Shown here in pieces: positions 5,436 through 40,357 of a DNA stretch of 64,000 nt (positions are counted from its first letter, which is position 1; each line of letters starts with the position of its first letter). Both the position numbers and the translations under genes were made by a program. Source of the DNA: an uncultured Pseudomonadales bacterium (GTDB taxonomy: Bacteria > Patescibacteriota > Microgenomatia > UBA1400 > Chazhemtobacteraceae); NCBI GenBank assembly GCA_964618725.1, contig CAZUBK010000001.1, forward strand, positions 196,908-260,907. Reading direction: 5' to 3'. The notes under the pieces are model-generated. The model saw only the letters and a list, made by a program, of their open reading frames with translations. It had not been told where the DNA came from and did no database searches.

Positions 5436-5442
5436 ACAACCT

Positions 5443-6240: not shown

Positions 6241-6245
6241 ACAGG

Positions 6246-7091: not shown

Positions 7092-7093
7092 AG

Positions 7094-7927: not shown

Positions 7928-7933
7928 AGAATC

Positions 7934-9396: not shown

Positions 9397-9464
9397 GCTA
9401 GGGTAATTGTTTGGTTACATCTTACTTAATAATGGCTAATGCGAATACCTATTAGATTTTATCA

Positions 9465-9493
9465 CTATCCAATATTTAGAGTTCATGTATAAT
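9465..9493 (+). promoter_or_regulatory. Candidate promoter with a perfect TATAAT -10 (about 9488..9493) for the orphan gene.
   Basis: tgtataat is read directly and the -35 is weak. It lies about 35 nt upstream of AGGAGG (9515..9520) and ATG 9530. Confidence 0.3.
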
Positions 9494-9529
9494 ATGAGAT
9501 ATCTGTTTAACTGCAGGAGGTTCTTTTAC

Positions 9530-13323: not shown

Positions 13324-13367
13324 AGATTCTTAGTCTTTTGAGATTTGAAGGGCATTGTAACACGCTC

Positions 13368-25488: not shown

Positions 25489-26433
25489 TTACTTAATCAA
25501 TTCAGGATGAGCTTGTAAATACTCTATTGTTTTAATTATGCCGTCCTTGATGGAGATTTTTGGCGTCCAGCCAAGTGATTTAAGATTTGTTGTATCGAGA
25601 TGAACGAAATCATTGTCGCCTTTCCAACCACGCTTACCGCCTAAATATTTCTTTGGAACTTTTGAACCACTCGTTTCCAAAATAGTATTGACTATTTCAT
25701 CAACGGTTAATATTTCATCGTGGCCTAGATTGTAGACATTGATTTTTTCCTTTGATTTTTCAATTATAGTAAAGATCGCGCTTAAGCCATCTTTTACATA
25801 TAAGGATGATTTTTGGGGAGTGCCGTCGGATAGTAACTCTAGTTCCTTAGGTTCCACCTTTAACTTTTTTAAAAGATCGACAATAATCCCATGAGTGTAT
25901 CGCTCGCCGATCCAGGATACGAAACGAAAAATATAGATATCCCAATCATAATAACTAGAGTATGCTTGGATATATGACTCACACGAAGCTTTGGTGGCGC
26001 CGTAGAGTGAAGTCGGAGTAAATGGATAGTTTTCTGGCGTTGGGTGAACTTTAGCGTCACCGTAAACAGATGAAGTCGAGGCAAAACCGATTTTTTTAAC
26101 ATTGCTTCTAAACATTGCTTCTAAAACATTGTGGGTGCAAGTTAGATTCTGTTGATGATCAATAAAATGATCGTTAAAACCTGAACGGACATCAGCATGA
26201 GCGGCAAGATGGAAAACAAAGTCGATTCCTTCACAGCTTTTAGTAATTAGGTCAAGATCTAAAAGATCGCCTTTAATTAGCTTGAAGTTTGATTTTTGAA
26301 GGTTATGTTCAACGAACAACTCTCTTCCTGTAGAGAAATTGTCGAATACTGTTACGTGATTTCCCTGCTCAAGAAGATAATCTACGATATTACTGCCTAT
26401 AAAACCCGCGCCTCCCGTTACTAGATATTTCAT
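25489..26433 (-). CDS. NAD-dependent nucleotide-sugar epimerase/dehydratase (UDP-hexose or UDP-HexNAc 4-epimerase-like). The track's 5' extension to 26562 is rejected.
   Basis: MKYLVTGGAGFIGSN is at the true start, giving an ATGA overlap with the upstream Gfo gene. YGATKASCE (YxxxK) is present. Confidence 0.8.
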   Translation of the reverse strand: MKYLVTGGAGFIGSNIVDYLLEQGNHVTVFDNFSTGRELFVEHNLQKSNFKLIKGDLLDLDLITKSCEGIDFVFHLAAHADVRSGFNDHFIDHQQNLTCTHNVLEAMFRSNVKKIGFASTSSVYGDAKVHPTPENYPFTPTSLYGATKASCESYIQAYSSYYDWDIYIFRFVSWIGERYTHGIIVDLLKKLKVEPKELELLSDGTPQKSSLYVKDGLSAIFTIIEKSKEKINVYNLGHDEILTVDEIVNTILETSGSKVPKKYLGGKRGWKGDNDFVHLDTTNLKSLGWTPKISIKDGIIKTIEYLQAHPELIK

Positions 26434-27416
26434 GATTTTGAGTTGTTTGACTTGTAAACAATATCCACAGTTTTCAAAACATACGCCGCTTCTTGAATAC
26501 TTTTGTCTGAATAGTCCTTTTTTTTGATTCTTCGAAAGAATTCCTCTGTTTCTCGCTGCCATGACAAGTCTTCTGTCTCAGTAAGATCGTGTTCTTCTAC
26601 TATTGGTGGACCCATTTCTGGTTTCATCTTGTAGATAGTTAGTACTTCCGGGCCATAACTTCTACCTAATCCATTGATTTGCAACTTGGCAGTTTTAAGC
26701 ATTATTTCAAAGATGAAAATGTTTTTCCATTCCAAGCAAGTCACTGATAAATGAGCTATCTGGTTTTTGTCATTATTCAAGACAAAAAAAGCGGAATCCT
26801 CTAATTTTGCGTCCCAGAATAGATTTCTGGTAACTCCTTGCGCGTGCAGCATGGGGCCAGCAAAGAAGTTAGTCAAGTCAATTAAATGAGACCCTTGATC
26901 CAGTAGTTCACCACCGCCTGCAATTTCGGGATCAAATCTCCATTCTTTTTCATAACCTAATCTAGCACCGTGTCCATAGCGAGCACGAATAAAAAGGACT
27001 GGTCCAAATTCATTAGAATCGACAATTTGTTTGGCTTTGATGATTGCCGGATGAAAGCGGTGGTTGTAACCAAACATTACCACTGATTTCTGTTTTCTTG
27101 AGGCGGAGATGATCTTTTGGAGATCTTTTAGATTTCGAGCGCCAGGTTTTTCGAGTAAGACATGCTTACCTTGATTAATTGCTTCTTTTGCTATCGGAGA
27201 CAGAAGGTTGTTTGTTGTAGAGATGATTACCACGTCAGTTTTTGGATCTTTTACCACTTCATGCCAGTCTGTGGAAACAGTCGCTTTGAATTGCTCAGCT
27301 AATTGCGAGGCTCTTTCTTTATTGATATCACAGACTGTAACTAATTTGGCCCCTCTGGGTAGAGCAGAAGCTCGTTTGTTACCGATTAATCCTGCGCCGA
27401 TAATTGCAACATTCAT
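26430..27416 (-). CDS. Gfo/Idh/MocA-family NAD-dependent oxidoreductase. It is WbpB-like, a candidate nucleotide-sugar 3-dehydrogenase.
   Basis: MNVAIIGAGLIGNKRASAL N-terminal Rossmann motif and an EKP-type segment. Confidence 0.75.
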   Translation of the reverse strand: MNVAIIGAGLIGNKRASALPRGAKLVTVCDINKERASQLAEQFKATVSTDWHEVVKDPKTDVVIISTTNNLLSPIAKEAINQGKHVLLEKPGARNLKDLQKIISASRKQKSVVMFGYNHRFHPAIIKAKQIVDSNEFGPVLFIRARYGHGARLGYEKEWRFDPEIAGGGELLDQGSHLIDLTNFFAGPMLHAQGVTRNLFWDAKLEDSAFFVLNNDKNQIAHLSVTCLEWKNIFIFEIMLKTAKLQINGLGRSYGPEVLTIYKMKPEMGPPIVEEHDLTETEDLSWQRETEEFFRRIKKKDYSDKSIQEAAYVLKTVDIVYKSNNSKS

Positions 27417-27417
27417 A

Positions 27418-28713
27418 TTATTTAAGACCTATGCCTTGATAAGTAAATCCTGATTCTTTTAGGTCTAAGGAATCTAGATAATTTTTGGTGTCGATGATGA
27501 TTTTCTGATTCATCAGCTTACTAAAATTGTTGTAATTTATCTTTTGAAAATCTGACCAGGGGGTCATTAAGACTACACAATCTAGTTTATTGAAAAAATC
27601 TTTGTGGTTAGTGCAAATATCCATGAATTTGTGGGAGGAAACAACTGTGGTAATTGCTGGATCGTATGCCCTTAGTTTTGCTCCTTTGCTTTCAAGAAGA
27701 TCTGCTAGCTCCAGAGATTGTGAACGGCGAAGTGTGTTGGTATTTGGTTTATAGGTTAAGCCAAGAATTCCTATCTGTTTGTTTTTTAAGGAAGAAAGCT
27801 GTTTAGAAATTTTATTGACCAAAAGTGGGATTCTGTCTTGGTTGACTGAGTAAATGGATTTGATGAGTTTTGGTCTGTAACTTCGTTTACTAGACAGTTT
27901 ACTTAGGGTTTGTAAATCACGACCTAAAGTTCCACCAGCAAAGCCCAGACCTGGATTAATTGGTGAGTTAGGGCTGACTCGTTTATCTGATTTTAGTGCT
28001 TTGACTACTTCGGATGCGTCTGCACCAAAAAGTTCACACAGGTCTCCTAATTCGCTCGCAAAGCTAATATTCAGCGCTAGATAATAATTGAGGGCGTGCT
28101 TGGTCATTTCAGCACTCTCAAGGGCTACTGTTACAAAAGGACAGTCTAGGGAAGAGAAAACTTTTTGGAAATGTTCTAGAGATTTTAGATCATCACCGCC
28201 AATAATTACTCTGTCAGCTTTGAAAAAAGCATCCAAAGCCGTTCCGAGACGAAGGTTCTCAGGCCAACACAAGACATTAGCCTTTGGATTTTTCTTTCTT
28301 AACTTGTTTTGAAGCTGACGAGAAGTTCCAACCGGGATCTGACTGGAGATAATGATAGTACAGTGAGGGGAGGAATATCTTACAACCAGGTCAGATATTT
28401 TCTTAAAGGGCTTGATATCAATTCGATCGTTGTCGTCAACCGGAATATCCAAACAAATGAGGATATAGTCTTTGTCGTGAATGGCTTCTTTAGGATTGTT
28501 GGTGTAAATAAGATTCTTGTTTAAGTTCTCGTTTATTATTTCATTTAAACCTGGTTCAAGAATAGGCGCCTCCCCCTTGTTTAGTCTTTCGATTACTTTC
28601 GAGTCTGGATCGAAGGCTGCAACTTCGAACCCTAACTTAGCCAGACATGCGGAGTAAACACTGCCTAAGTGCCAAAGGCCCAGCACACCGATAGATGATT
28701 CAGTTTTTTTCAT
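27418..28713 (-). CDS. UDP-glucose/GDP-mannose dehydrogenase family nucleotide-sugar 6-dehydrogenase. It is WbpA/WecC-like, a candidate for producing a UDP-HexNAc uronic acid.
   Basis: IGVLGLWHLGSVYSA (GxGxxG), the 431 aa size and a central dimerisation region typical of the family. Confidence 0.8.
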   Translation of the reverse strand: MKKTESSIGVLGLWHLGSVYSACLAKLGFEVAAFDPDSKVIERLNKGEAPILEPGLNEIINENLNKNLIYTNNPKEAIHDKDYILICLDIPVDDNDRIDIKPFKKISDLVVRYSSPHCTIIISSQIPVGTSRQLQNKLRKKNPKANVLCWPENLRLGTALDAFFKADRVIIGGDDLKSLEHFQKVFSSLDCPFVTVALESAEMTKHALNYYLALNISFASELGDLCELFGADASEVVKALKSDKRVSPNSPINPGLGFAGGTLGRDLQTLSKLSSKRSYRPKLIKSIYSVNQDRIPLLVNKISKQLSSLKNKQIGILGLTYKPNTNTLRRSQSLELADLLESKGAKLRAYDPAITTVVSSHKFMDICTNHKDFFNKLDCVVLMTPWSDFQKINYNNFSKLMNQKIIIDTKNYLDSLDLKESGFTYQGIGLK

Positions 28714-29536
28714 AGAATAGGTCTTGGTCGATACGCCGTAATTTGTAGAGGTTACTACTAATATCTTTTAATTTCTTTAGATCTTCAACGGGATTCCATT
28801 TGGCGCTTAAAAGACAACCTGACAAATGATCTGATTCTTGACTAAGAAGGAAGTTGATTAATTTAGTCGTTAATTCAATTGGTGTTCCGCCTTGTTTCTT
28901 TCTGGCAAGTGCGTTGTCATATTCCACTTGACCTACTTTATCGACACCCTGAGAGATGATGTAATCTGTTATTTGAGTATTGATCGCCCCTGGAGCAATG
29001 CAGTTGACATGGATGCCAAATGGCTTAAGCTCATCTCCTATTACTTCAGTAAAGCCAGCGATTGCCACTTTTGAAGTGAAATATGGTGAAAAACGTGGCA
29101 TGGCTTTGGCTCCGACTCCAGCACCGCAAAGATTAATGATTCTGCCGTGACCTTGCCTTTTCATTATTGGAATGACAAGTTGAGTACAACTAATTGTTCC
29201 AAATAAATTGATTTCAAATGTTTTTTTCCATTCAATAGGGTTCATCTCTTCCAAGAAATCTGTGGGGCTTATAACCCCGGCATTATTGACAAGTACATCT
29301 ATCCCATGCAACTCCTCATTTGCAAAATTGATTAGCCTCTTGCAATCTTCATATGAAGAAACGTCAGAAACGATGCCGTGAATTCTATTGTCAGTAAGTC
29401 TGGCTGCTTGGTCTATGTCTTCTTGGGAACGAGAACAAACAACTACTTGAGCGTCTTGTTCAATTAAAGCTTTAGCAATAGAAAGACCTATCCCTTTTGT
29501 TCCACCAGTGACAACTGCTTTTATTTGTGTGAGCAC
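28700..29536 (-). CDS. SDR-family oxidoreductase.
   Basis: VTGGTKGIGLSIAKAL and a YFTSK catalytic pair. Confidence 0.8.
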   Translation of the reverse strand: MLTQIKAVVTGGTKGIGLSIAKALIEQDAQVVVCSRSQEDIDQAARLTDNRIHGIVSDVSSYEDCKRLINFANEELHGIDVLVNNAGVISPTDFLEEMNPIEWKKTFEINLFGTISCTQLVIPIMKRQGHGRIINLCGAGVGAKAMPRFSPYFTSKVAIAGFTEVIGDELKPFGIHVNCIAPGAINTQITDYIISQGVDKVGQVEYDNALARKKQGGTPIELTTKLINFLLSQESDHLSGCLLSAKWNPVEDLKKLKDISSNLYKLRRIDQDLFYEKN

Positions 29537-29544
29537 AGCTACCG

Positions 29545-29574
29545 ATTGTAGCGGACTATTGATGAAATAGACAA
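29545..29574 (-). promoter_or_regulatory. Candidate minus-strand promoter TTGTCT-18-TACAAT for the leftward operon starting with the SDR gene.
   Basis: Hexamers are read on the reverse complement. It lies back to back with the plus-strand promoter. Confidence 0.3.
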
Positions 29575-29589
29575 GGTGTCATATAGTCA

Positions 29590-29618
29590 TTGACATTGCT
29601 TCGAGGCTAGCTTAGAAT
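29590..29618 (+). promoter_or_regulatory. Near-consensus sigma70 promoter TTGACA-17-TAGAAT driving the rightward operon (P-loop gene, then gmhB, hddC, hddA, oxidoreductase).
   Basis: A perfect -35, a 17-nt spacer and a 5/6 -10 are read directly. AGGAG lies 7 nt before ATG 29663. Confidence 0.45.
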
Positions 29619-29662
29619 TGTGAAGATAATTATCGGTTTGAACCTTAAAAAAGGAGAGCGTA

Positions 29663-30328
29663 ATGTACGAGGGTTTAGCAGGAGTTGATCACCCAGGTTG
29701 GGGTTTTACAGCTTCCTTGTCACGGCCAACCCTTATCTTGGGTGCTGGGATTGGGGGTACTGGTAAAAGTAGTTTCTTCAAACCACTTTCTAAGACAATC
29801 CAGAATTCTGTTTACGTTGATAAAGATCTGTTGACTTATTCCTTCCTTTGGAAACCACATGATGGGGAAAGAAAAGACATGACGCGATACATTCCCAAGG
29901 AGTATATTCATCCAGATGATGAATACTATTGGAAACATGTCTTGCGACAGGGTTACCATTACTTATTGATGATGGCGCGGCAAATGCTGGCCTTAGGTAA
30001 GCATCCCATTTTGGATGGGAATTACATTAAGGAAATAAGATGGGGGTACTTGGAAACCGTATTGTTTCCTTTCTTGGAAGGTATAGATTACCAATTTAAG
30101 ATTGTATTGGTACACACCTCTCCTGAGATTATTCGTCAAAGGCTAATTGCGAGAGCGGCAGATCATGACAGAATTAAATTGAGTTCTGAAGAAGAATGGC
30201 AAAAGTTGTTAATGGAACAACCGCCAATCCCACCAGAGATCGAACAATATTCGCATGTAAAAGTCGATACCTCTGTTCCTGTTACAAAAGCACAGGTTTT
30301 AGAAGTGCTCGATTTTCTGTCTACATAA
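29663..30328 (+). CDS. P-loop NTPase / small kinase-like protein (AAA_33/zeta-toxin-like fold).
   Basis: Walker A GAGIGGTGKSS and the 221 aa size. It is the first gene of the heptose operon. Confidence 0.55.
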   Translation: MYEGLAGVDHPGWGFTASLSRPTLILGAGIGGTGKSSFFKPLSKTIQNSVYVDKDLLTYSFLWKPHDGERKDMTRYIPKEYIHPDDEYYWKHVLRQGYHYLLMMARQMLALGKHPILDGNYIKEIRWGYLETVLFPFLEGIDYQFKIVLVHTSPEIIRQRLIARAADHDRIKLSSEEEWQKLLMEQPPIPPEIEQYSHVKVDTSVPVTKAQVLEVLDFLST

Positions 30329-30341
30329 TAAAGGCACAGAG

Positions 30342-30367
30342 CCCTGAATTTTTTCAGGGCTATTTTG
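30342..30367 (+). terminator. Hairpin AGCCCTGAA-tttt-TTCAGGGCT followed by ATTTTG. It is a partial terminator or attenuator between the P-loop gene and gmhB.
   Basis: A 9-bp perfect stem is read directly and the U-tract is short. Confidence 0.35.
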
Positions 30368-30410
30368 TAACTTTAAGGAGCTGTTGAGGGAGGTGTGATA
30401 AGATTATTTT

Positions 30411-31007
30411 ATGGACAAAGCAATATTTCTTGACCGTGATGGGATAATAAATGAGTTTGTTTATTATCATGATATTGATACAATAGATGCGCCAAGAGGC
30501 GCTTCGCAGGTAAAGTTGGTACACGGAATAAGTCAATTGATTAAGGCAGTGAGAGAAATGGGGTTTAAAACTATAATTGCTTCAAATCAACCAGGGATGG
30601 CTTTGGGGAAATTAACTCGTGAATCTTTTGAGGGAATAACACAAAGAATTAAAAACTTGTTGGGTGAAGAGGGTGCCATATTAGACAACGAATATTACTG
30701 TACACACCATCCTTTTGGAATACATGAGTCTTTGGCGATACAATGCGATTGTCGCAAACCAGGAATTGGTATGTTTAAAAAGGCGGAGGATGAATTGGGA
30801 ATTGATCTGAAAAAGTCGTGGTTTATTGGCGATGGATTAACTGATGTCAAGGCAGGCTTCACAGCTGGCTGTAAGACGATTCTACGAGGTTTCCCTGATC
30901 AAACAGGATTTTTGGCTTTAGTAGAAAAGGAACTTGGAGACATTAAACCTGACTACATAATCCGAAAATTGCCTGAGGCAATAGAGATTATTCGCTCATA
31001 TGAATAG
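30411..31007 (+). CDS. gmhB: D-glycero-D-manno-heptose 1,7-bisphosphate phosphatase (HAD-IIIA, GmhB family).
   Basis: FLDRDGIIN (DxDGxxN HAD motif I), the roughly 190 aa size and its position beside the heptose kinase and nucleotidyltransferase. Confidence 0.75.
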   Translation: MDKAIFLDRDGIINEFVYYHDIDTIDAPRGASQVKLVHGISQLIKAVREMGFKTIIASNQPGMALGKLTRESFEGITQRIKNLLGEEGAILDNEYYCTHHPFGIHESLAIQCDCRKPGIGMFKKAEDELGIDLKKSWFIGDGLTDVKAGFTAGCKTILRGFPDQTGFLALVEKELGDIKPDYIIRKLPEAIEIIRSYE

Positions 31008-31773
31008 TTTCCGAGACACCCAGGTGATAGTAGTCGCTGGAGGCAGGGGCACAAGGTTGGCACCTTTGACTGACACCGTTCCAAAACCTATGGTTGAGGT
31101 TGCCGGTAAGCCAATCTTGGAACACACGCTTAATCATTTTGCCTCTTTTGGATTTCGTAAATTCATTCTTTGCTTGTGCTATTTACCAGAAAAAATTGAG
31201 GATTATTTTGGCGACGGTAGTAAGTTTGGTTTGCAGATTGAATATGGTTATGAGGATCCTAATGAGCCTTTGGGATCAGCGGGAGCTGTTAGTCTAGTCG
31301 AGAAGCATATCTGTGGAAGTTTCTTTGTAACCTACGCAGATATTTTGCGTCATTTAGATTTGATAGATCTTTGGTCCTTCCATAAAGGAAATGGTGGGCT
31401 GGCAACCCTTGCCCTTCACTCTAGCCAAAGTATTTTACCTCGCAGTAAGATACTGTTTGATAAAAAGTCAAAGAAAATTGAAGGTTTTATTGAGCATCCT
31501 ACTCCAGATCAAGTGACGGAGAGACCAGTTTGGGCCAATGGTTCCCTTTATTTGTTTGAAAGAGAAATATTTGACCACCTTCCTTATGGCAAAAAATTTG
31601 ATTTCGGATCAGATATCTTTCCACTTTTACTTAAGGAAGGAAAATCTATATATGGTTATCCAAACGACGATTATTTAATTGACATCGGAACACTAGAAAA
31701 ATTGCATTTAGCAGAGGATGATATAAAATCAGGTAAATTGAAAACCTATGATTATAGTAAGAGCGCCTTTTAG
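31000..31773 (+). CDS. hddC: Sugar-1-phosphate nucleotidyltransferase. It is a probable D-glycero-alpha-D-manno-heptose-1-P guanylyltransferase (HddC).
   Basis: VVAGGRGTRLAPLTDTVPKPMV signature (G-x-G-T-R-L). It overlaps gmhB by 8 nt and hddA by 26 nt. Confidence 0.65.
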   Translation: MNSFRDTQVIVVAGGRGTRLAPLTDTVPKPMVEVAGKPILEHTLNHFASFGFRKFILCLCYLPEKIEDYFGDGSKFGLQIEYGYEDPNEPLGSAGAVSLVEKHICGSFFVTYADILRHLDLIDLWSFHKGNGGLATLALHSSQSILPRSKILFDKKSKKIEGFIEHPTPDQVTERPVWANGSLYLFEREIFDHLPYGKKFDFGSDIFPLLLKEGKSIYGYPNDDYLIDIGTLEKLHLAEDDIKSGKLKTYDYSKSAF

Positions 31774-32734
31774 AATCCCTCTTGGTGGTGGGGGCACTGA
31801 TTTACCATCCTATTATTCCAAATTTGGAGGAGAACTCGTTTCTGTGGGAATTGATAAATACATGTTAGTGATTGTTAATCGACCAATGGTAGATAAATTG
31901 ATAAGAGTGAAATACTCGAAGTCTGAAATGGTAGAAAGTGTCGATCAAATCCAGCATGAATTGGTCCGCGAATCACTAAAGCTTGTCAGAATAGAAGACA
32001 GTATAGAGATTTCTTCCATTGCTGATGTGCCATCGGGTACAGGGATGGGATCTTCAGGTAGTTATTTAGTGGCCTTATTGAAAGCTTTACATACTTTCAA
32101 TAGGGATGAAGCGACAGTTAAACAAATTGCTAATGAAGCCTGCATGATAGAAATCGAAAAGTTGGGGTCTCCTGTGGGAAAGCAAGATCAATATATGGCA
32201 GCATTTGGTGGTCTTACTAAATTAGTTATTGATAAAAAGGGTGTTGTTGAAGTGATTAGACCAGAATTACCTATGGGAACAATGAAAGATTTAGAAAGCA
32301 GTTTGTGTATCTTTTATACTGGGATCAGAAGGGAGAGTAAAGAAGTTCTAACTAAACAGAGTAAGGCTACTTCTGATGGTGATAAGCAAGTAATAGATAG
32401 TCTTCATTATATTAAAGAAATTGGTGGTGAAATCTACAAAGCGATCCTAAAAGGGAATATTCATAAATTTGGAGCACTGATGGATCTTCATTGGCAGCAC
32501 AAGAGAAAACTAGCAAGCAATGTAAGCAGTAGTGATATTGATCGATGGTATCAAGAAGGTAAATATGCGGGAGCTCTTGGCGGTAAGATCATGGGCGCAG
32601 GCGGTGGGGGATTTTTGATGTTTTGTTGTCCGGGAGACAAGACTGCCTTGCGTGCCGCCATGGCGAAACAAGGATTAAGAGAAATGTTTTTCAATTTTGA
32701 TTACGACGGTGTTAAGATTTTAGTTGATTTTTAG
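31748..32734 (+). CDS. hddA: GHMP-family kinase, a probable D-glycero-alpha-D-manno-heptose 7-phosphate kinase (HddA).
   Basis: PFRIPLGGGGTDLP (GHMP motif) and GMGSSGS ATP-binding motifs, with a heptose-pathway neighbourhood. Confidence 0.7.
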   Translation: MIIVRAPFRIPLGGGGTDLPSYYSKFGGELVSVGIDKYMLVIVNRPMVDKLIRVKYSKSEMVESVDQIQHELVRESLKLVRIEDSIEISSIADVPSGTGMGSSGSYLVALLKALHTFNRDEATVKQIANEACMIEIEKLGSPVGKQDQYMAAFGGLTKLVIDKKGVVEVIRPELPMGTMKDLESSLCIFYTGIRRESKEVLTKQSKATSDGDKQVIDSLHYIKEIGGEIYKAILKGNIHKFGALMDLHWQHKRKLASNVSSSDIDRWYQEGKYAGALGGKIMGAGGGGFLMFCCPGDKTALRAAMAKQGLREMFFNFDYDGVKILVDF

Positions 32735-32741
32735 GAACTGA

Positions 32742-33863
32742 ATGAAAAAGGAGTTAAAGGTTTATATTGCCGGTACGGGGGCTGTATTTGAAGAAAAAAT
32801 GGTGAGAACACTAGCTATTTTAGGCTCAGAACAAAATAGATACTTGTTGGATATTGATATTGAACGCTTAATGAAAGCACCTGATGTCGGTGTAAAAATT
32901 GTAGGGGATTGTTTGAATCCACCAATTCGAGAAGTGCCTGAAAACGAGAGAGCGGAGACAACAGCGGTAATAGCGACACCTGATCATTTGGGAAGTATCA
33001 TCGGATTTATTGAAAGAGGCGTGCGACGTTTTATCGTTGAGAAACCATTGGTCAACAACAATCAGGAGGTAGAACAACTCAAAAAACTGATCACTCAGTA
33101 TCCAGATTTGCAAATATATGCTTTGGATTTTTATATTCAGAAATGTACTCCTTTATTGTTACTTGCTGGAACAATTTCTCCAGAAGACCCTAGATCAAAC
33201 TGGGTGAGGTTCCAAAACAACGAAGTTGTACCAGCGGAAATATTTGGGTCTATTGATAGTTTCATTGGAAAAATTGAAGGAATATCCGTGACGATTGTAG
33301 AAGGCGGAAAATTGGGAGTGCCTGATGTTGATGGTCGTTCTTGGCTTGAAAGGGACAAAAAGAGAGGTGGGGTACTGCTAGATTTAGCTATTCATGCAAT
33401 AGCTCCTCTGGTATCTTGCGGGTTGGTTACTTCTAAAAATGTGAATGTCATCCATGCAGAAAGAAAAAATTTCGGTGAAGATAGACGTTCTTTTATAGCA
33501 GCGCCTTCTGAAATGCCGGAAATGTACGCTCATGCCCTGCTGAGCTTGTTGACCGAAGATGCAAGAAATGTACCTATCGAGCTAACTGTTGGAAAGATAT
33601 TCCAAGACGGTGGTATATGGGAAATGGTGATTCGTGGTTCACAGGGAAACATAACAATTGGACTTCGTAGTGGACAACATTTAAGTGTTCAGTCAAATGG
33701 TTCGGCTGACTTTCAACTCAGCTTGGATAAAACAAATGATCCGTATGCATTGGCATTTCAAGAAGCAAAGATGTATTTTGAAGGTCGTCCGGGATTTGAC
33801 GGGAATCTTAAGGCAGCCCTCGAATCGATCGCGATTATAGAAGAGATTAAGCGCGTTTCTTAG
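32742..33863 (+). CDS. Gfo/Idh/MocA-like Rossmann oxidoreductase, a candidate GDP-heptose-modifying enzyme.
   Basis: IATPDHLGSIIGFIERGVRRFIVEKPL resembles the Gfo/Idh/MocA consensus around the EKP motif. It is the last gene of the operon. Confidence 0.45.
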   Translation: MKKELKVYIAGTGAVFEEKMVRTLAILGSEQNRYLLDIDIERLMKAPDVGVKIVGDCLNPPIREVPENERAETTAVIATPDHLGSIIGFIERGVRRFIVEKPLVNNNQEVEQLKKLITQYPDLQIYALDFYIQKCTPLLLLAGTISPEDPRSNWVRFQNNEVVPAEIFGSIDSFIGKIEGISVTIVEGGKLGVPDVDGRSWLERDKKRGGVLLDLAIHAIAPLVSCGLVTSKNVNVIHAERKNFGEDRRSFIAAPSEMPEMYAHALLSLLTEDARNVPIELTVGKIFQDGGIWEMVIRGSQGNITIGLRSGQHLSVQSNGSADFQLSLDKTNDPYALAFQEAKMYFEGRPGFDGNLKAALESIAIIEEIKRVS

Positions 33864-33870
33864 AAAGGTT

Positions 33871-34638
33871 CTAAATCAGTTTTAAATCCGGATTGTCTTT
33901 GACTTTTTCGAAGGCGGCGTCGAACTGGGCAATGGTTTCCAGGGCGCGGGTAGTAACCATAATTTTTTCGAGAATCTTTGGTGGGACTGTAACTATATCC
34001 GCGCCAAGACTAAAGGCTTCGATTATCTGATGCGGCTCTCGGACGCTGCCAATAATTATTTTCGTATCGAGTCGGTGATTGGCGAGATAGGTAATGGTGG
34101 CACTAAGAACGTCTTGAGGTTCTTGGCTCTCACCTCTTATAGAACTCTCCATAGCCCGTCCCCAGAATAGACTAATATAAGTACTGCCTTCTCCCGCATA
34201 GCGGCGACTGGCTTCGGCGGCTAACATCAACTGAGCGGTATTAATGCCGATAGTGGCATTGGTTTGGATGCCTCTTTGAGCCAATCTAGCAATTACTTTT
34301 AGGCCTTTTGTGTCATCAGGGATAATAGGAACTTTTATGACTGTATTGGTGGGAAAAAGTTCGTGGTAGGCAACAGCTAGGTCAACCATTTCCTCGGCTT
34401 CCATCTTACTGTCAGGAAGCTCGATTGAAATAGGGAAACCAGGGCCGACTATCTCACACATTTTGGTTAAGTGTCCAGGGATATCATAGATGCCTTCCTT
34501 TTCGAAAAGAATCAGTTGATTAGTGGTAATCCCCCCGATCACTTCCTGCCAGTTCCTAATCTGATTGAGGTCGCCCGAGTCAAGAAACCAACCAGATCGG
34601 TTCATGGGCGATCGGTTCTCTGGAGTAGTCTTAAGCAT
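33871..34638 (-). CDS. Transaldolase / fructose-6-phosphate aldolase family (TalC/FSA-type short transaldolase).
   Basis: FLDSGDL...GGITTNQ (D...TTNP-type active-site blocks) and the roughly 255 aa size. Confidence 0.65.
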   Translation of the reverse strand: MLKTTPENRSPMNRSGWFLDSGDLNQIRNWQEVIGGITTNQLILFEKEGIYDIPGHLTKMCEIVGPGFPISIELPDSKMEAEEMVDLAVAYHELFPTNTVIKVPIIPDDTKGLKVIARLAQRGIQTNATIGINTAQLMLAAEASRRYAGEGSTYISLFWGRAMESSIRGESQEPQDVLSATITYLANHRLDTKIIIGSVREPHQIIEAFSLGADIVTVPPKILEKIMVTTRALETIAQFDAAFEKVKDNPDLKLI

Positions 34639-35254
34639 TTTTTATCCTTTCTATTAGATCAAATATTAATCCGTGATTTAGTACTACATGAAAGGCTTCC
34701 ACTGCTGGCGTACCATAGGGTTCTGAATCGACTGGAACAACTAAACACACATCGGACATTTTTTTCATAGCCCCACCATCGAAACCTGAGAAACTAAGTA
34801 TCTTGGCATTTCTCTCCTGGGCGAGCCGCATCGCAGAGACGAGATTTTGAGACCATGGGCCAGCATTGCCGGAGCCTGAACCGCCATGGACTGAGAAGCC
34901 GACTAAAACGTCATTTTCAGTGAGCCAGTTCTTGAGTTGACCAGAAAAGACACTACCCCAGCCCTCGTCATTAGTCCAGGCGCTAGCTAGGGGAATATTG
35001 TCAACTAAGGAAATTGCCTTAAAGCCTAAGCGAGCTTTATACTTGGGAATAACGGTTTTAGCAAGATCGCCGGCAAAGTGTGTAGCGGTAGAGGAGGATC
35101 CGCCACAACCCATGGTGAAAACAACACCCTGATTTTGCCAACATTCAAATAGTAAATCAACGGCTTGTTGGTACTCTTTTGACTTACGAAAATGCTCTGC
35201 AATTTCACTAATTAAATCAAAGTATTTTTGCGAATTGAATTCTTGGGCATCCAT
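34631..35254 (-). CDS. gmhA: Second SIS-domain phosphoheptose isomerase (GmhA-like).
   Basis: FTMGCGGSSSTATHFAGDL and FSVHGGSGSG SIS motifs. It is a paralog of 1681..2253. Confidence 0.65.
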   Translation of the reverse strand: MDAQEFNSQKYFDLISEIAEHFRKSKEYQQAVDLLFECWQNQGVVFTMGCGGSSSTATHFAGDLAKTVIPKYKARLGFKAISLVDNIPLASAWTNDEGWGSVFSGQLKNWLTENDVLVGFSVHGGSGSGNAGPWSQNLVSAMRLAQERNAKILSFSGFDGGAMKKMSDVCLVVPVDSEPYGTPAVEAFHVVLNHGLIFDLIERIKNA

Positions 35255-35292
35255 GTGTAACCTATACTAGCATTTGAAAATTGACTGTCAAT

Positions 35293-36525
35293 ATGAAGAC
35301 AAGACTTAATTCTTACTACCTCAAGGACAAGAAGAAACTAATTGATTTCCTAGTGCCAACTGGCGCAAAAATTCAGAAAATCAAGGCTGAGGACTTTAGT
35401 TTGGGAAAGAAGTTTGATTATCTTGTTATGGACAATTTGATTGGTGAGATCAAAGATGTTTATAGCCTCTTTGAGCGAGTGAGGAAGCTCTGTAAAGATG
35501 ATACTAGATTAGTCATCACTTACTATAATCATCTCTGGGAACCAGTTTTGAAATTGGCATCGATACTAGGTTGGAAGAAACCAGTGGGCGAGTTAAATTG
35601 GCTAGATCAGGATGATATAAAAAATTTTTTGGAATTGACTGACTTTGAAGTTATCAATAGTGGGAAGAGACTATTAATACCAGTTAAGGTTCCTTACCTT
35701 TCTGACTTAGTGAATAAATGGATTGCACAACTGCCTGTGATTAATAGTCTATGCTTAACTACCTGGGTTACCGCGAGAGCAAAACCAAAAAAACGGCAGG
35801 AATTTTCTGTGAGCATTGTAATACCAGCACGAAATGAAAAAGGTAATATTTCGAAGGCCCTTAAATTGTTGCCAAAGTTTGGGAAATGGCAGGAAGTGAT
35901 CTTTGTCGAAGGACACTCTAAAGACAATACTTGGGAGAAGATAACAGAAGTCATAAGAGCGAATAAAAGGAAAAACTTAAGGTTAGTTGCCTTTAAACAA
36001 AAAGGTAGAGGTAAGGCAGATGCCGTGCGGCTGGGCTTTAGTAAGGCCAAGGGGGAACTTCTGATGATCCTTGATGCTGATCTGACAGTAGACCCTTTAG
36101 AACTACCGAAATTTTACAATGCGCTTTCGCAGGGTCAGGGCGAGTACATAAACGGAAGTCGGATGGTCTATCCAATGGAAAAAGAAGCGATGAGGACTTT
36201 AAATATATTGGGTAACAAAATTTTTTCGTTACTTTTTACTTGGATTTTGGGTCAGAGATTTAAGGATACTTTATGTGGAACAAAGGTGATGCTTAAAAAA
36301 GATTATTTAAGGATATCTAAAGGAAGAAAGTTCTTTGGCGATTTTGACCCATTCGGAGACTTTGACTTGATTTTTGGGGCGGTGAAGCAGAACTTGAAAG
36401 TGATAGAGATTCCGGTGAGATATAAGGAAAGAACTTATGGATCAACTAACATCAGCCGGTTTCGGCATGGCTGGTTGCTATTAAAGATGACATGGTTCGC
36501 TTTTCGGAAATTCAGAGCTTGGTGA
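35293..36525 (+). CDS. Two-domain protein with an N-terminal degenerate methyltransferase-like domain fused to a GT2 glycosyltransferase. The track ORF begins at TTG 35281.
   Basis: The GT2 part is FSVSIVIPARNEKGNI...ILDADLTVDP. The N-terminal 170 aa have a Rossmann-like segment but no GxGxG. Confidence 0.7.
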   Translation: MKTRLNSYYLKDKKKLIDFLVPTGAKIQKIKAEDFSLGKKFDYLVMDNLIGEIKDVYSLFERVRKLCKDDTRLVITYYNHLWEPVLKLASILGWKKPVGELNWLDQDDIKNFLELTDFEVINSGKRLLIPVKVPYLSDLVNKWIAQLPVINSLCLTTWVTARAKPKKRQEFSVSIVIPARNEKGNISKALKLLPKFGKWQEVIFVEGHSKDNTWEKITEVIRANKRKNLRLVAFKQKGRGKADAVRLGFSKAKGELLMILDADLTVDPLELPKFYNALSQGQGEYINGSRMVYPMEKEAMRTLNILGNKIFSLLFTWILGQRFKDTLCGTKVMLKKDYLRISKGRKFFGDFDPFGDFDLIFGAVKQNLKVIEIPVRYKERTYGSTNISRFRHGWLLLKMTWFAFRKFRAW

Positions 36526-37258
36526 TTTTTGATTTAGTTGCCAGGAAATCTGTATAGAACACTGAGTCATAGACTTTTTGTTTAATCATGTTTTTTGTGA
36601 GTTGACTGAAAAGAGTGACTTTGAAACCGGATTTTTTAAGTAGATCAAGATAGTCGCTTGGATTACATCCGGCTTTGGCAAGGCCATAGGGCCAGAATTC
36701 TCCCAGAATAATTGGATTCTTGCTGCGTTTAAGAATCTCAAGGGCACCTTTGAAGACTTGATAATCAAATCCTTGGGCGTCTATCTTAAGAAAGTCTATA
36801 GACTTTGTGCTCGAAAAATACTTATCTAAGGTAATCGAGCGAACATAAGTATATTTTCTATTCTCACCATTATCGTAAGTCTGATGGTCAACATTTAAGT
36901 CGCTTGATGTGTACAACTTTAACTTTTCGATTTTGTTTCCGACTGCTTTTTTGATGACCTTGATGTTTCTGTACGGGCGAGTGGTTTGCTTAAGGTACTT
37001 GAAATTTTGGATGTCGGGCTCAAAAGCGTGGACCTGTCCGGTTTTATTCAAAAGATTTGATAGAGCAATAGAATAGAAACCAATGTTGGCGCCTACATCG
37101 ACAGTAATCATTCCGGGCACTATGATCTCCTTGAGCAAATCAATCTTGGATTTGTTAACAAAATATTTATAGTGGAAGTAGAAAAACCGGTATAGATTGA
37201 AGTGGCTTTGATAAAGATGATTAAAGGCGACAAAAACAAGTTGTTTAAAGTTTGGCAT
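36512..37258 (-). CDS. FkbM-family methyltransferase.
   Basis: VDVGANIGFYSIALSN...HAFEPDIQNFKYL. Confidence 0.75.
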   Translation of the reverse strand: MPNFKQLVFVAFNHLYQSHFNLYRFFYFHYKYFVNKSKIDLLKEIIVPGMITVDVGANIGFYSIALSNLLNKTGQVHAFEPDIQNFKYLKQTTRPYRNIKVIKKAVGNKIEKLKLYTSSDLNVDHQTYDNGENRKYTYVRSITLDKYFSSTKSIDFLKIDAQGFDYQVFKGALEILKRSKNPIILGEFWPYGLAKAGCNPSDYLDLLKKSGFKVTLFSQLTKNMIKQKVYDSVFYTDFLATKSKITKL

Positions 37259-38819
37259 GAGCTTTAGAAAGACAATGATCGGATTCTATCAAGACCATGG
37301 GTCTAAGACTAGTATTGGGAATCTGAATAATATTGATGATCTTGTTTGGATAGAGATCTAAAAACCGGGGAAGAATTTCTTTTTGCATGTAAAGTTTGTC
37401 CCAACAAAAGGTGAAGAGGTCTTGCGTTTCGTCCAGGCTGGTTTTAATTTTCTTAAGATCTGAGGTAATCGCATATAAATTCGGCTTAACTTTTTTTAGC
37501 TGATCAGCATAGAGATCCCCATACCATTCTTGGCTGGTAAGTAACGCATAATCGATCGAGTAACCGTATTCCCAGATAACGGCCTTCTGTGGTGGGTGAT
37601 TAGCGATGAAATTCTCCAGAGAATTGGCTTGATCGACAGCCAGGGAAGTATGTGTTAGATATGAACTGATCACTGAACTTGAGGCAAATAATACAAAGAT
37701 AATGAATAAAGATTTTAAAATGCGATTGAATCGGGGAAAAAGCAAAGAGGCAATAAAGGCAAAAGCGAAGTAATTGGTTTGTTGGTAACGACTAAGCGAG
37801 TGCTTGGTAAAAGCTAAAATAAAGCCAAAGACAATACAAGCGAGTATTAGCAAAGGGAAGGTAATTTTGTCGCGAAGTTTGTCTTTAAAGTTAAAGAAGA
37901 CCAAAATGAGCGATATGAGAATGATAAAAGTAATTGCAAATGATTCGTTATGCCAGAGGGTTTTGATTGAGGAAATATGAGTTGATATGTTGATTAAGTC
38001 CACAGATCCATCACCGTGAGCCCCCGAGCGTGTGGCAAGCTTAAGTGCCCAACTGATGATGCTGTTGTAGTCTTGAAGGATTGGCGAAATGCCGTAAATA
38101 AAGCCGAGTAAAATGAATATTCCTACTACAATGGAGAAAGGTAAACCTACTGGAAGACTATACATCAAAATGGTCAATACTGGCGGTACCACAGCGAAGG
38201 CCATATTTGTGAATTTGTTGGCGACGGATAGACCTGAAAGTAAAGCAGTAGCGAAAAGGGGGATCTTGTTACGAGTCTTTAAAAAAATGTAAAGGCATGA
38301 GAACCAGATACTGAGAAGAAAAAAGGATACCGTCTCTGAGGCAATTGAGACACCTAAAGAAGGAAAATGTCTGTAACTGAAAAGGGCTAACCAAGAAAAG
38401 ATGATGGCCAACGAGGAATGAGTAGCCCTATAGATGAGAGCTAAAAAGATACTCAAGGCGAGAGTAAATATAAGGCTGTAAAAAACTCGGAGATACAAAT
38501 AGAAATAACCTTGATTGACGATGCTCCAGTAAATAAACTCTGATGGTTGGCTCAAAGAGAAAAAGTGTTTTAGGGGAAGAATGACCTTAGAGAGAGTAAC
38601 TATCGAGGGTGTTGCAGGATGATCAATATAGTAAATTTTGCCAGTGTCGTTGTAAAGTATGGCATTGGTAACATAAACTGCGTCGGGTTCGAAGGTAAAG
38701 AAACTAGTTCTTGGACCGCCGATGAGTACAGGTAAAATGGAGACTAATCCGCCTAGAAGCGAAAGTCCGATGATAATAGCCCGACCAATTAAAGGCTTGT
38801 TACTAGGTTTCTTTTTCAT
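37245..38819 (-). CDS. GT-C-like polytopic membrane glycosyltransferase. It forms a tandem paralog pair with 38816..40357.
   Basis: It has about 12 TM helices, a first-loop motif FEPDAVYVTNA...YIDHPATP, and a C-terminal soluble domain. Confidence 0.6.
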   Translation of the reverse strand: MKKKPSNKPLIGRAIIIGLSLLGGLVSILPVLIGGPRTSFFTFEPDAVYVTNAILYNDTGKIYYIDHPATPSIVTLSKVILPLKHFFSLSQPSEFIYWSIVNQGYFYLYLRVFYSLIFTLALSIFLALIYRATHSSLAIIFSWLALFSYRHFPSLGVSIASETVSFFLLSIWFSCLYIFLKTRNKIPLFATALLSGLSVANKFTNMAFAVVPPVLTILMYSLPVGLPFSIVVGIFILLGFIYGISPILQDYNSIISWALKLATRSGAHGDGSVDLINISTHISSIKTLWHNESFAITFIILISLILVFFNFKDKLRDKITFPLLILACIVFGFILAFTKHSLSRYQQTNYFAFAFIASLLFPRFNRILKSLFIIFVLFASSSVISSYLTHTSLAVDQANSLENFIANHPPQKAVIWEYGYSIDYALLTSQEWYGDLYADQLKKVKPNLYAITSDLKKIKTSLDETQDLFTFCWDKLYMQKEILPRFLDLYPNKIINIIQIPNTSLRPMVLIESDHCLSKAHAKL

Positions 38820-40357
38820 CGGCAGTGAGAAGAAGAAACAGATAATAGATCGGTTCCGGGGATCTCTTCAACTACAAAGGGGTTTTCAGGGTGGGCCTCT
38901 TTAAATATTGGCCAAGAAGTTTTTTGGACATAAAGTCGATCCCAACAAACTTCAAAAAAGGGTTTTGTATCGTAGTAATTTAAACGAAGGTGGGTTGGGG
39001 AGGCGATTTCTAAAAGGTCAGGACGTATGGCTAAAAGTTCTTGATCAAAGCTTCCACCAGACCAAGACCGTCCCCAGAGTAAGGCGAAATCCTTGCTGTA
39101 GGCCCATTCCCAAATAGAAGCGTGAGGGGAGCGATTTTTGTTCGAGTAATCCTCTACGGCAATTGCCTGATTAATGGTTTTGGTAATTACGAAATGGTAT
39201 TTGGAAACAACCAAAAACATTGGACTGATCAAAAATAAAATTAAAATGCTTTTTGCCGTTTTAGGCAAGCGTCTAATTAGGAGACTACCGCTGAAAATAA
39301 GTAGTACGTAGTTGGCAAATTGGTAATGACTCAGGGGATATTTGGCGAAAGTAAGCGTTCCTAATAGTGCCCAGGCGAAGACAGTCAGAATGAACTTATT
39401 TTTTTTTCGGTTGGTGAGCAGTTGCCAGACGAATACCAGCGCAAGAAAAATAATTATCAGGGCGGCCTCGTGGTTGCTACCAACAAGGGCCGAGGCGGAC
39501 TGAAGCCAAGTTTGATAACTAAACAGACCCCGAGGGCCGCCTCCGTGAACTCCTGTAAAAGTCAACAGGCGGACAACCCAGTTAAATAGGGAAGAATAGT
39601 TTCCGCGAATCGGCCAGATGCCGATGACAAAACCAAGGACGACTGAGAATGAGTTAAGGCAAAGATTGAAAAATTTCTGTAATTTGGAAAGTTTCGGGAT
39701 GATAAGAATTAAAGAGAGAGTGATAAAAACCAAAAAAAGGTTACTAAGTTTATTGGCGACGGCAAGGCCAGAAATAAGACTAATAAATATGATTGTCATT
39801 AGGGAGTAAGAGTTTATAAAACGCTGAAATAAAAACAGCCAAGAACTGATGAATAAAAGTGTCAGTGACTCTGGAGCGAGGGCTGTGCCGGCATGAAGAA
39901 AGGATTGATAGCTCATTAAAGAAATCCATCCAAGCAATACGGACAGTGTTGATTTGGTAGATCGATATAAAGCCAGCAAGAAAAGCCCAATTGAAAAACC
40001 TAAAAGAATAGCTTGAATTATGCGAGCGTAATAGTAAATGAAAGTGATATCGGTTACTGCCCAAAGAATGAAGGGTGTATGAAGAACAAACTTGGCCAGT
40101 ACTCGAAGGGGCAGAAAAATAGTTGCCAACCAGAGAATGGTCGGTGTTCCTGGATGGTCTATGTAATGAATCTGGTGACCCTTAATATAGGAGAGGGCGT
40201 TACTTAAATACATTACATCTGGATCGACGGCAAAGAAAACTCCAGAAGCCTGATTACTCACAAGAGGGAGAACCACTAGAATGAAGGTGATTAAAGGAAG
40301 AAGGAAGAGAAAAAGATAACTACTTTTTCTTAACCACAAAATATTCAATGGAAGCAT
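38816..40357 (-). CDS. GT-C-like polytopic membrane glycosyltransferase (paralog).
   Basis: The motif AVDPDVMYLSNA...YIDHPGTP is shared with the previous gene. It has a 4-nt overlap with that gene. Confidence 0.6.
   Translation of the reverse strand: MLPLNILWLRKSSYLFLFLLPLITFILVVLPLVSNQASGVFFAVDPDVMYLSNALSYIKGHQIHYIDHPGTPTILWLATIFLPLRVLAKFVLHTPFILWAVTDITFIYYYARIIQAILLGFSIGLFLLALYRSTKSTLSVLLGWISLMSYQSFLHAGTALAPESLTLLFISSWLFLFQRFINSYSLMTIIFISLISGLAVANKLSNLFLVFITLSLILIIPKLSKLQKFFNLCLNSFSVVLGFVIGIWPIRGNYSSLFNWVVRLLTFTGVHGGGPRGLFSYQTWLQSASALVGSNHEAALIIIFLALVFVWQLLTNRKKNKFILTVFAWALLGTLTFAKYPLSHYQFANYVLLIFSGSLLIRRLPKTAKSILILFLISPMFLVVSKYHFVITKTINQAIAVEDYSNKNRSPHASIWEWAYSKDFALLWGRSWSGGSFDQELLAIRPDLLEIASPTHLRLNYYDTKPFFEVCWDRLYVQKTSWPIFKEAHPENPFVVEEIPGTDLLSVSSSHCR

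Follow-up and report, generated by a model that had tools for sequence, protein, structure and literature searches.

The GDP-D-glycero-alpha-D-manno-heptose pathway, which runs through GmhA, HddA, GmhB and HddC, is known from the S-layer of Aneurinibacillus and from the capsules of Campylobacter and Burkholderia. Heptoses in Campylobacter and Yersinia are tailored by GDP-mannose-dehydratase-like, cupin-epimerase and reductase enzymes. Aldo-octoses made by a nucleotide-sugar route are, to our knowledge, documented only for the lincosamide antibiotics. In that octose pathway, LmbR, LmbN, LmbP, LmbK and LmbO act ahead of LmbM, LmbL, LmbZ and LmbS, and these last four convert GDP-octose to GDP-lincosamide (PMC4351081, Table 2 and S1 Table DS1-1; PMC12945683). 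Here we compare these systems with a gene cluster at about 25489–40357, on both strands, of a 64,000-nucleotide stretch (the window) of contig CAZUBK010000001.1 from a Patescibacteria-like genome. To judge from its genes, we hold with moderate confidence that the region encodes an Lmb-like nucleoside diphosphate (NDP)-octose pathway that feeds a surface glycan.

Eight counterparts of lincosamide enzymes

Reciprocal best-hit comparison with the lmb locus (designated L092) pairs eight window proteins with LmbR, LmbN, LmbP, LmbK, LmbO, LmbM, LmbL and LmbZ. The SIS-family isomerase encoded at 34631–35254 is 43% identical to LmbN (144 bits), and the transaldolase (TAL) gene that overlaps it, at 33871–34638, encodes a protein 33% identical to LmbR (94–103 bits). 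The GHMP kinase (31748–32734) pairs with LmbP (32%, 139 bits), the HAD phosphatase (30411–31007) with LmbK (31%, 80 bits) and the nucleotidyltransferase (31000–31773) with LmbO (25%, 84 bits). On the minus strand, an NDP-sugar epimerase (25489–26433) matches LmbM (35%, 188 bits), a UDP-glucose dehydrogenase (UGDH)-like protein (27418–28713) matches LmbL (29–33%, 194–207 bits) and a Gfo/Idh/MocA-family oxidoreductase (26430–27416; here Gfo) matches LmbZ (30–32%, 160–166 bits). Pfam assigns LmbZ to GFO_IDH_MocA and LmbL to UDPG_MGDP_dh.

The isomerase, encoded on the minus strand, has GmhA as its top curated model, at 87 bits against a TIGR00441 cut-off of 209.45. The window also encodes a canonical GmhA (GmhA1; 1681–2253; TIGR00441, 207.9 bits; NF010546, 212.7 bits), which is about 30% identical to the isomerase (GmhA2) and 32% identical to LmbN (84 bits). 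Compared with canonical GmhA, the isomerase has Asp for Glu65, Glu for Gln172, Val for Thr120 and His for Ser121, and lacks Arg69; the numbering is that of the Escherichia coli sequence, and is consistent with GmhA1. Alignment with the Campylobacter jejuni protein (1tk9) places an insertion of nine residues, rich in glycine, within the STSGxS phosphate loop. LmbN has the same extended loop, with the motif SVHGG. On these sequence features, the isomerase is not a canonical GmhA and belongs to an extended-loop SIS subfamily.

LmbN was also recovered with a profile of the window SIS family. Among 1.84 billion representatives, rank 21 (178 bits) is held by a sequence whose 90% cluster contains Streptomyces lincolnensis LmbN. 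Scored against family hidden Markov models (HMMs), LmbN reaches 197 bits with the SVHGG family, whose HMM was built without LmbN and its relatives, 145 bits with the short-loop family and 92 bits with canonical GmhA.

A preliminary description of the locus had named D-glycero-D-manno-heptose as the product and had placed GmhA1 in the same route. Neither proposal is supported: the isomerase of the pathway is of the LmbN type, not the GmhA type, and GmhA1 is a canonical enzyme that lies 28 kb away, beside a NeuB-family synthase and a CMP-transferase.

The surroundings of GmhA1 (254–10813) form a setting of their own. GmhA1 adjoins the NeuB-family synthase gene (757–1626), and its vicinity encodes a PseF-like cytidylyltransferase (8734–9396), two short-chain dehydrogenases/reductases (SDRs), a xylose-isomerase-like TIM-barrel protein and a Wzm/Wzt ABC exporter. 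A possible function of this segment is a CMP-ulosonic-acid route fed by a GmhA product.

A transaldolase tied to the isomerase

We gathered related loci by using the window transaldolase as a probe and then compared gene contexts. An extended-loop SIS gene lies near a TAL gene in all of the 46 related loci that carry such a SIS, and within 4 kb in 44 of them. Conversely, the SIS near a TAL has the extended loop in all 46 independent loci, and the canonical type retains the short loop. Three SIS genes that were picked independently of TAL, one of them from a Desulfobacteraceae metagenome-assembled genome (MAG), are each followed directly by a TAL gene (3/3). In the window, the isomerase and transaldolase genes overlap by 8 nt (34631–34638) and are, as read from this overlap, translationally coupled. 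A 502-amino-acid protein from a JGI metagenome (P0262) is a natural fusion of an extended-loop SIS isomerase and a transaldolase domain. Because the TAL adjoins the isomerase in dozens of loci and is fused to it in one protein, it is functionally tied to the isomerase pathway, as the preliminary description had supposed.

The marker that tracks TAL is the extended loop with V120, not D65/E172. The latter pair was rejected as a marker on its own, as a large short-loop class has the same residues; in a sampled control, a short-loop D65/E172 SIS gene adjoins an HldE-like gene and has no TAL within 8 kb. The extension ranges from +3 to +10 residues across the SIS family, depending on clade. One related locus (L018) holds both a canonical GmhA and the TAL-linked SIS type.

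Two loci show other SIS contexts. In a WOR-3 MAG (L054, 4015–5400), 728 nt separate a canonical short-loop GmhA from a transaldolase of the housekeeping type; it is the sole canonical GmhA that we saw near a TAL. L094 (6397–13226) has a short-loop D65/E172 SIS gene next to an HldE-like PfkB/adenylyltransferase fusion, along with a pair of DegT aminotransferase genes and a split pair of transketolase-like genes, and has the look of a cluster for a modified ADP-heptose or a branched sugar.

The window transaldolase (minus strand; PF00923 (TAL_FSA), 101.8 bits) keeps residues that match Asp6, Asn28, Glu60, Lys86, Phe132, Arg135 and Arg169 of TacTAL. In the fructose-6-phosphate aldolase (FSA) subtype, Tyr replaces the TAL Phe and Gln replaces the catalytic Glu. 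The window enzyme retains both Phe158 and Glu73 (aligned to TacTAL Phe132 and Glu60); an FSA-type aldolase was rejected on this basis, and by its active-site residues the enzyme is of the true TAL type. Of the earlier label ‘transaldolase/FSA-type’, only the first half is retained. The clade of the window transaldolase comprises about 64 database clusters at ≥41% identity, followed by a sharp drop, and no GTDB representative has a TAL more than 47% identical to it.

TAL phylogeny proved uninformative as a test of heptose against octose: SIS-linked TALs fall in at least three clades, and LmbR is among the housekeeping enzymes. A connection through Thermoplasma was also discarded. TacTAL is of the housekeeping type, 60% identical to the L054 TAL and not close to the cluster TALs of two Thermoplasmatales loci (L033 and L037). 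We draw nothing from the known heptose of Thermoplasma acidophilum.

A sister clade of TALs occurs in loci of a different composition, in Pseudomonadales and Patescibacteria MAGs (L004, 10001–15310; also L007 and L009). These loci have no SIS gene. The TAL is accompanied there by a 365-amino-acid protein, an amidotransferase of the AsnB type, a protein with a shikimate-dehydrogenase N-domain and an AroB-like cyclase (TIGR01357, 230 bits, below the cut-off).

Kinase, phosphatase and nucleotidyltransferase

Three enzymes of the plus strand match the steps that follow isomerization. The HAD-IIIA sugar-bisphosphate phosphatase (30411–31007; GmhB/LmbK type) has GmhB models as its top NCBIfam matches (NF006506, 119.6 bits; TIGR00213, 117.5 bits), both below cut-off (119.6 versus 178). 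The GHMP anomeric sugar-phosphate kinase (31748–32734; HddA/LmbP type) best matches HddA (NF049969), at 149 bits against a cut-off of 600, and its closest solved structures are heptokinases (WcbL, 4usm/4usk; 3k85; and C. jejuni HddA, 4n3o). LmbP and WcbL themselves match at only 71 bits. For the sugar-1-phosphate nucleotidyltransferase (31000–31773; PF00483, 110.8 bits; LmbO/HddC/GDP-mannose pyrophosphorylase type), the top NCBIfam match is mannose-1-phosphate guanylyltransferase, at 147 bits versus 82 bits for HddC (cut-off, 300), and structure matches place GDP-mannose-pyrophosphorylase-like enzymes first and HddC lower. The nucleotide that it uses is probably GTP.

No second GHMP kinase is encoded in the 64-kb window, and no PfkB or CTP_transf_like protein was found among the scanned window open reading frames (ORFs) of ≥120 amino acids. 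The logic proposed in the preliminary description, in which transaldolase entry leads to isomerase, GHMP kinase, phosphatase and nucleotidyltransferase in a GDP-type rather than a PfkB/HldE-type route, is borne out by these assignments. By profile and structure matches, HddA is the group of the kinase, and guanylyltransferases are that of the transferase. The grouping that would have spoken against the preliminary description, with galacto/mevalonate kinases and with glucose-1-phosphate cytidylyl/thymidylyltransferases, is thus not what the searches gave.

A putative tailoring operon on the minus strand

The remaining Lmb-like genes lie in a minus-strand operon (29536–25489) that diverges from the plus-strand operon out of the same intergenic region, and its genes overlap or abut. 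The operon starts with a classical SDR gene (28700–29536; adh_short, 183.6 bits), followed by the LmbL-like UGDH-family gene (27418–28713; UDP-glucose/GDP-mannose dehydrogenase family; TIGR03026, 318 bits), the LmbZ-like Gfo gene (26430–27416; PF01408, 87.8 bits, with PF22725) and the LmbM-like extended-SDR epimerase gene (25489–26433; PF01370, 160.8 bits). The epimerase gene probably starts at the ATG at 26433, which overlaps the preceding stop codon as ATGA. As called mechanically, the ORF extends to 26562.

The UGDH-like protein reads GFAGGTLGRD where the UGDH 4a7p has GYGGSCFPKD, and LmbL reads FSGATLRRD at the same place. Replacement of Cys by Thr is thus common to LmbL and the window protein. 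The catalytic Cys is absent from all UGDH-like homologues of the cluster, which have Thr, His or Asn instead. A role as a uronic-acid-forming 6-dehydrogenase was rejected for the window protein because of this substitution. The Gfo protein has NCBIfam matches that include an archaeal UDP-GlcNAc 3-dehydrogenase (106.6 bits), and its LmbZ-like gene is kept in most related loci. A classical SDR gene co-occurs with it in L002, L006, L021, L022, L088, L090, L091 and others, and the window SDR may be a ketoreductase that replaces the LmbS transamination step. The oxidoreductase and SDRs had been likened to Campylobacter heptose tailoring; their counterparts are instead LmbL, LmbZ and LmbM.

The LmbM-like gene is followed directly, on its own strand, by a 250-amino-acid ORF (24707–25459) with a TTG start and no Pfam match.

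Distribution of the cluster

The conserved unit is larger than the gene set initially described. The genes that recur together in related loci encode the SIS, TAL, HAD phosphatase, GHMP kinase and nucleotidyltransferase together with the four products of the tailoring operon: Gfo/Idh/MocA, classical SDR, UGDH-like protein and extended-SDR epimerase.

Loci with an extended-loop SIS and a TAL occur in Patescibacteria, Gammaproteobacteria, Desulfobacteraceae, Methylomirabilota, Nitrospiraceae, Verrucomicrobiota, Planctomycetes, Dormibacterota, Nanoarchaeota and Thermoplasmatales. The nearest relatives are in Woese-, Gottesman-, Collier- and Zambryskibacteria. The cluster is also present in about 28 of the 63 ‘generic’ TAL loci from a genome scan, in genomes of Methylomirabilota, Nitrospiraceae, Verrucomicrobiota, Gemmata, deltaproteobacteria and Thermoplasmatales. 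Its carriers include the cultured Saccharomonospora azurea, on the chromosome (L093, 4787–16821). The genes there encode two HAD proteins, an ABC transporter, a GHMP kinase, an extended-loop SIS, an FkbM methyltransferase, a TAL, a NUDIX protein, a nucleotidyltransferase, methyltransferases and an epimerase, and no lincosamide genes are present. The module also occurs in lineages without metabolic reduction (for example, S. azurea and the Desulfobacteraceae MAG), which argues against a TAL that only makes up for a missing pentose-phosphate pathway.

Some components vary. The phosphatase is replaced in place by an inositol-monophosphatase-family protein in L008 (6756–7592) and by a HAD_2 protein in L016 (10818–11501). 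The UGDH-like gene is missing from L002 and L091, and L089 has no tailoring gene at all. In L002, L090 and L091, a single nucleotidyltransferase gene is interleaved with the tailoring genes, in the order Gfo, SDR, nucleotidyltransferase, epimerase.

It is, in our judgement, an evenly balanced proposition that an ancient Lmb-type NDP-octose pathway serves widely as a primary route to cell-surface glycans and was recruited into lincosamide biosynthesis. It would extend over Patescibacteria, Methylomirabilota, Nitrospirota, Verrucomicrobiota, Planctomycetes, Deltaproteobacteria, actinomycetes, DPANN and Thermoplasmatales, with the extended-loop SIS isomerase and transaldolase as its diagnostic pair. 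The searchable literature yielded no paper connecting a transaldolase with glycan clusters for heptose or octose, and no report of an octose pathway outside the lincosamides.

Proposed pathway and alternatives

From the homologies we infer the carbon number and nucleotide of the sugar, its exact tailoring chemistry, the role of the SDR and the lipid-carrier steps. In this scheme, the transaldolase would transfer a C3 unit from fructose-6-phosphate (or sedoheptulose-7-phosphate) onto ribose-5-phosphate to give octulose-8-phosphate, which the LmbN-type isomerase would convert to aldo-octose-8-phosphate. The GHMP kinase would then phosphorylate O1, the HAD phosphatase would remove the 8-phosphate and the nucleotidyltransferase would form an NDP-octose (probably GDP-octose). 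Epimerization and a side-chain (6,8-type) dehydration would fall to the LmbM-like epimerase and to the pair formed by the Cys-less LmbL-like protein and the LmbZ-like Gfo protein. The classical SDR, in place of the LmbS aminotransferase, would reduce the keto group to yield an 8-deoxy-octose-type sugar. A methyltransferase–glycosyltransferase family 2 (GT2) fusion protein may load this sugar onto polyprenyl phosphate, and two proteins with eight transmembrane (TM) segments may pass it to a surface acceptor.

Several observations weigh against an octose product. The carbon number is deduced from one characterized relative, in Streptomyces, and octoses are far rarer than heptoses among the prokaryotic glycans known so far. 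No LmbS-type aminotransferase is encoded in the module or in the conserved module of related loci; the sole DegT-family gene of the window, an RfbH-like gene at 11896–13323, encodes a protein with 25% identity to LmbS and is 12 kb away from the module. The nucleotidyltransferase is only 25% identical to LmbO, and the kinase is about as close to WcbL (about 147–150 bits) as to LmbP. In a neighbour-joining analysis with the signature columns removed, LmbN and GmhA2 stand apart from the canonical and short-loop proteins in 60 of 100 bootstraps, a moderate value. LmbR scores 165 bits with the housekeeping-type TAL class versus 109 bits with the window TAL clade; judged by these scores, the window TAL and LmbR appear to be analogous recruits rather than orthologues. 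TALs were thus recruited more than once, as LmbR classes with housekeeping TALs, outside the window clade. The catalytic and phosphate-binding residues of the window TAL are all generic, so its sequence gives no hint of a preference for ribose-5-phosphate over erythrose-4-phosphate. The sister TAL clade adjoins AroB-like and shikimate-dehydrogenase-like genes, a context that fits the ordinary erythrose-4-phosphate/sedoheptulose-7-phosphate reaction. Finally, the Thermoplasmatales, which carry related clusters, are known to contain a heptose, D-glycero-D-galacto-heptose (PMC12448462).

The main rival, which we regard as unlikely, is the GDP-heptose model of the preliminary description. Here the TAL would make sedoheptulose-7-phosphate from fructose-6-phosphate and erythrose-4-phosphate, the divergent SIS would isomerize it, the HddA-, GmhB- and HddC-like enzymes would produce GDP-D-glycero-alpha-D-manno-heptose or its gluco or galacto epimer, and the oxidoreductases would modify the product. 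GmhA, HddA and GmhB are indeed the top curated families and heptokinases the closest structures of the kinase, but the scores fall far under the cut-offs (87/209, 149/600, 120/178 and 82/300 for GmhA, HddA, GmhB and HddC, respectively). The fully canonical TAL active site and the AroB/shikimate-like context of the sister clade suit the ordinary reaction, heptoses are common in surface glycans (D-glycero-D-galacto-heptose of Thermoplasmatales among them), a related cluster is carried by Thermoplasmatales MAGs (L033 and L037), and a dedicated precursor supply is plausible because many carriers are Patescibacteria; yet the TAL is kept in the cluster of a cultured actinomycete. A canonical GmhA is present both in the window and in L018, so a divergent paralogue would be superfluous for isomerizing sedoheptulose-7-phosphate, and the sole characterized extended-loop SIS member is the octulose-8-phosphate isomerase LmbN. 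We are not aware of LmbL-, LmbZ- and LmbM-type tailoring in heptose pathways, and a 6,8-type side-chain dehydration would require three exocyclic carbons.

Two further explanations concern the substrates. It is very improbable that the island holds two unrelated pathways, with the plus-strand genes and the TAL–SIS pair making an NDP-heptose or NDP-octose and the minus-strand operon acting on another substrate, such as a UDP-hexose or UDP-GlcNAc, as in the WbpA/WbpB route. Pairs of UGDH-family and Gfo-family enzymes are well known from UDP-GlcNAc(3NAc)A biosynthesis, the Gfo protein matches the archaeal UDP-GlcNAc 3-dehydrogenase and the tailoring set is variable among loci. However, the UGDH-like protein lacks the Cys needed for uronic acid formation, there is no accompanying aminotransferase or acetyltransferase, the single nucleotidyltransferase gene is interleaved with the tailoring genes in many loci and each of the three enzymes pairs as a reciprocal best hit with a lincosamide enzyme that acts on GDP-octose (LmbL, LmbZ and LmbM; PMC12945683). 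We consider it highly improbable that the TAL uses another acceptor (for example, a hexose-6-phosphate to give a nonulose-9-phosphate), or that another stereoisomer is formed, such that the product is neither the Lmb octose nor a classical heptose. Transaldolases are promiscuous towards aldose-phosphate acceptors, and the variable SIS loop could reflect different substrates among clades; against this, there is no precedent, and the characterized relative makes a C8 sugar. Octulose formation has been reviewed (PMC5854111). The Lmb-like octose pathway is the reading that we prefer.

Organization of the locus and the surrounding island

The ORF check and the Pfam and NCBIfam searches confirmed all of the genes listed in the preliminary description, in both position and family. 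The near-consensus promoter that it placed ahead of the plus-strand genes is a consensus match only. The site (TTGACA-17-TAGAAT; 29590–29618, plus strand) matches the consensus at 11 of 12 positions and is the top promoter-like match within 25–37.5 kb, but the scanned region holds 27 promoter-like sites where 28.6 are expected by chance. The second site, which precedes the isomerase gene (TTGACA-16-TAGTAT, extended −10 TG; 35264–35291, minus strand), likewise is a consensus match only, at 10 of 12 positions. All five plus-strand genes are present, but they may not form one transcript because a terminator-like hairpin (30340–30361) separates the P-loop gene from the phosphatase gene.

Two of these five genes had been assigned to the pathway, and neither is conserved in related loci. 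The AAA_33 P-loop kinase-like protein (29663–30328; AAA_33, 32.8 bits) has no NCBIfam or PDB match. The weakly Gfo/G6PD-like Rossmann protein (32742–33863) has an N-terminal Gfo domain under the cut-off and a C-terminal match barely over it (GFO_IDH_MocA_C, 23.4 bits), with no NCBIfam and no significant PDB match. Neither has a homologue in any of the more than 50 related loci compared; the two proteins are lineage-specific accessories.

On the other side of the isomerase gene are the candidate transfer genes. The methyltransferase–GT2 fusion (35281–36525, plus strand; PF00535, 75.5 bits; Methyltransf_23) matches AglJ (TIGR04182) at 98 bits, below the cut-off. It also lies beside the SIS gene in L002, L006, L087, L088, L090 and L091, and may be a polyprenyl-phosphate glycosyltransferase for the pathway product. 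An FkbM-family methyltransferase (36512–37258, minus strand; PF05050, 66.3 bits) has a homologue beside the module in L088, and FkbM-type methyltransferases occupy that place in L090 and L091. Two paralogous proteins of about eight TM segments (37245–38819 and 38816–40357, minus strand), each with eight hydrophobic segments, have no Pfam match. Their homologues adjoin the SIS–TAL pair in L002, L006, L087 and L088, and the L091 homologue has a weak PMT_2 match; these proteins could be GT-C-like transferases.

The whole window is a glycan island, with GT2 and glycosyltransferase family 4 (GT4) genes, a B12 radical-SAM gene, FkbM methyltransferase genes and the Wzm/Wzt exporter. Within 25 kb (37245–62026), it encodes at least ten multi-pass membrane proteins of PMT_2/GT-C/GT87-like type, an unusually dense set of putative lipid-linked-sugar transferases. 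The B12-binding radical-SAM enzyme (22313–23785) is encoded near the module, as is its 56% identical homologue in L088 (14429–15898), with a small ferredoxin; it could be a sugar C-methylase. At 11896–14327, an RfbH/DdhC-like pyridoxal phosphate enzyme (NF011936, 611 bits; cut-off, 423) adjoins an epimerase/dehydratase, which suggests 3,6-dideoxyhexose-type chemistry in the same island.

Implications

If octoses are made by these clusters, they would be a new sugar class for bacterial and archaeal surface glycans, including those of candidate phyla with essentially uncharacterized envelopes. We rank the wider distribution of the cluster as a more interesting result than the single locus. Were the widespread pathway real, 8-deoxy-octose-type sugars would be common yet overlooked in prokaryotic envelopes. 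An octose product would also account for where the lincosamine sugar pathway came from in evolution, and the automated naming of thousands of genes as ‘D-sedoheptulose 7-phosphate isomerase’ or ‘UDP-glucose 6-dehydrogenase’ would then be in error. A simple marker for finding such clusters is a transaldolase beside a SIS with the extended-loop signature, and the cultured carrier S. azurea makes the octose question directly testable.

Comparison with known pathways

The ADP-heptose lipopolysaccharide route (GmhA, HldE, GmhB and HldD) shares with the window the SIS isomerase at its start and a HAD phosphatase. It differs in the kinase step: the window uses a GHMP kinase, and its scanned ORFs of ≥120 amino acids include no PfkB kinase/adenylyltransferase.

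The GDP-D-glycero-alpha-D-manno-heptose pathway is closer. Its four steps follow the logic seen in the window and draw on the same four families of proteins, and the top curated model and structures of the window kinase are HddA and WcbL. By contrast, the window isomerase is of the LmbN type and the tailoring enzymes are of the LmbL, LmbZ and LmbM types. We know of no transaldolase in known GDP-heptose clusters, which use a canonical GmhA, and of no characterized heptose pathway with a UGDH-like/Gfo pair.

The lincosamide octose branch is matched in eight of its nine enzyme families, with the TAL encoded within the pathway in both systems. The isomerase shares the extended-loop subfamily of LmbN, and the UGDH-like protein shares the Cys-to-Thr replacement of LmbL. 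Identities to the Lmb enzymes, however, are only 25–43%, the TAL is of another clade and a classical SDR is present where the LmbS-type aminotransferase is absent. The genes are set in a surface-glycan island, with GT2s, GT-C-like proteins and an ABC exporter, rather than in an antibiotic cluster, genes for amino-acid or thiol conjugation are absent, and the hosts are Patescibacteria-like and of many other phyla, not Streptomyces. What would be new here is a pathway of the Lmb type that lacks the amination step and is placed among glycan genes, in a Patescibacteria-like genome.

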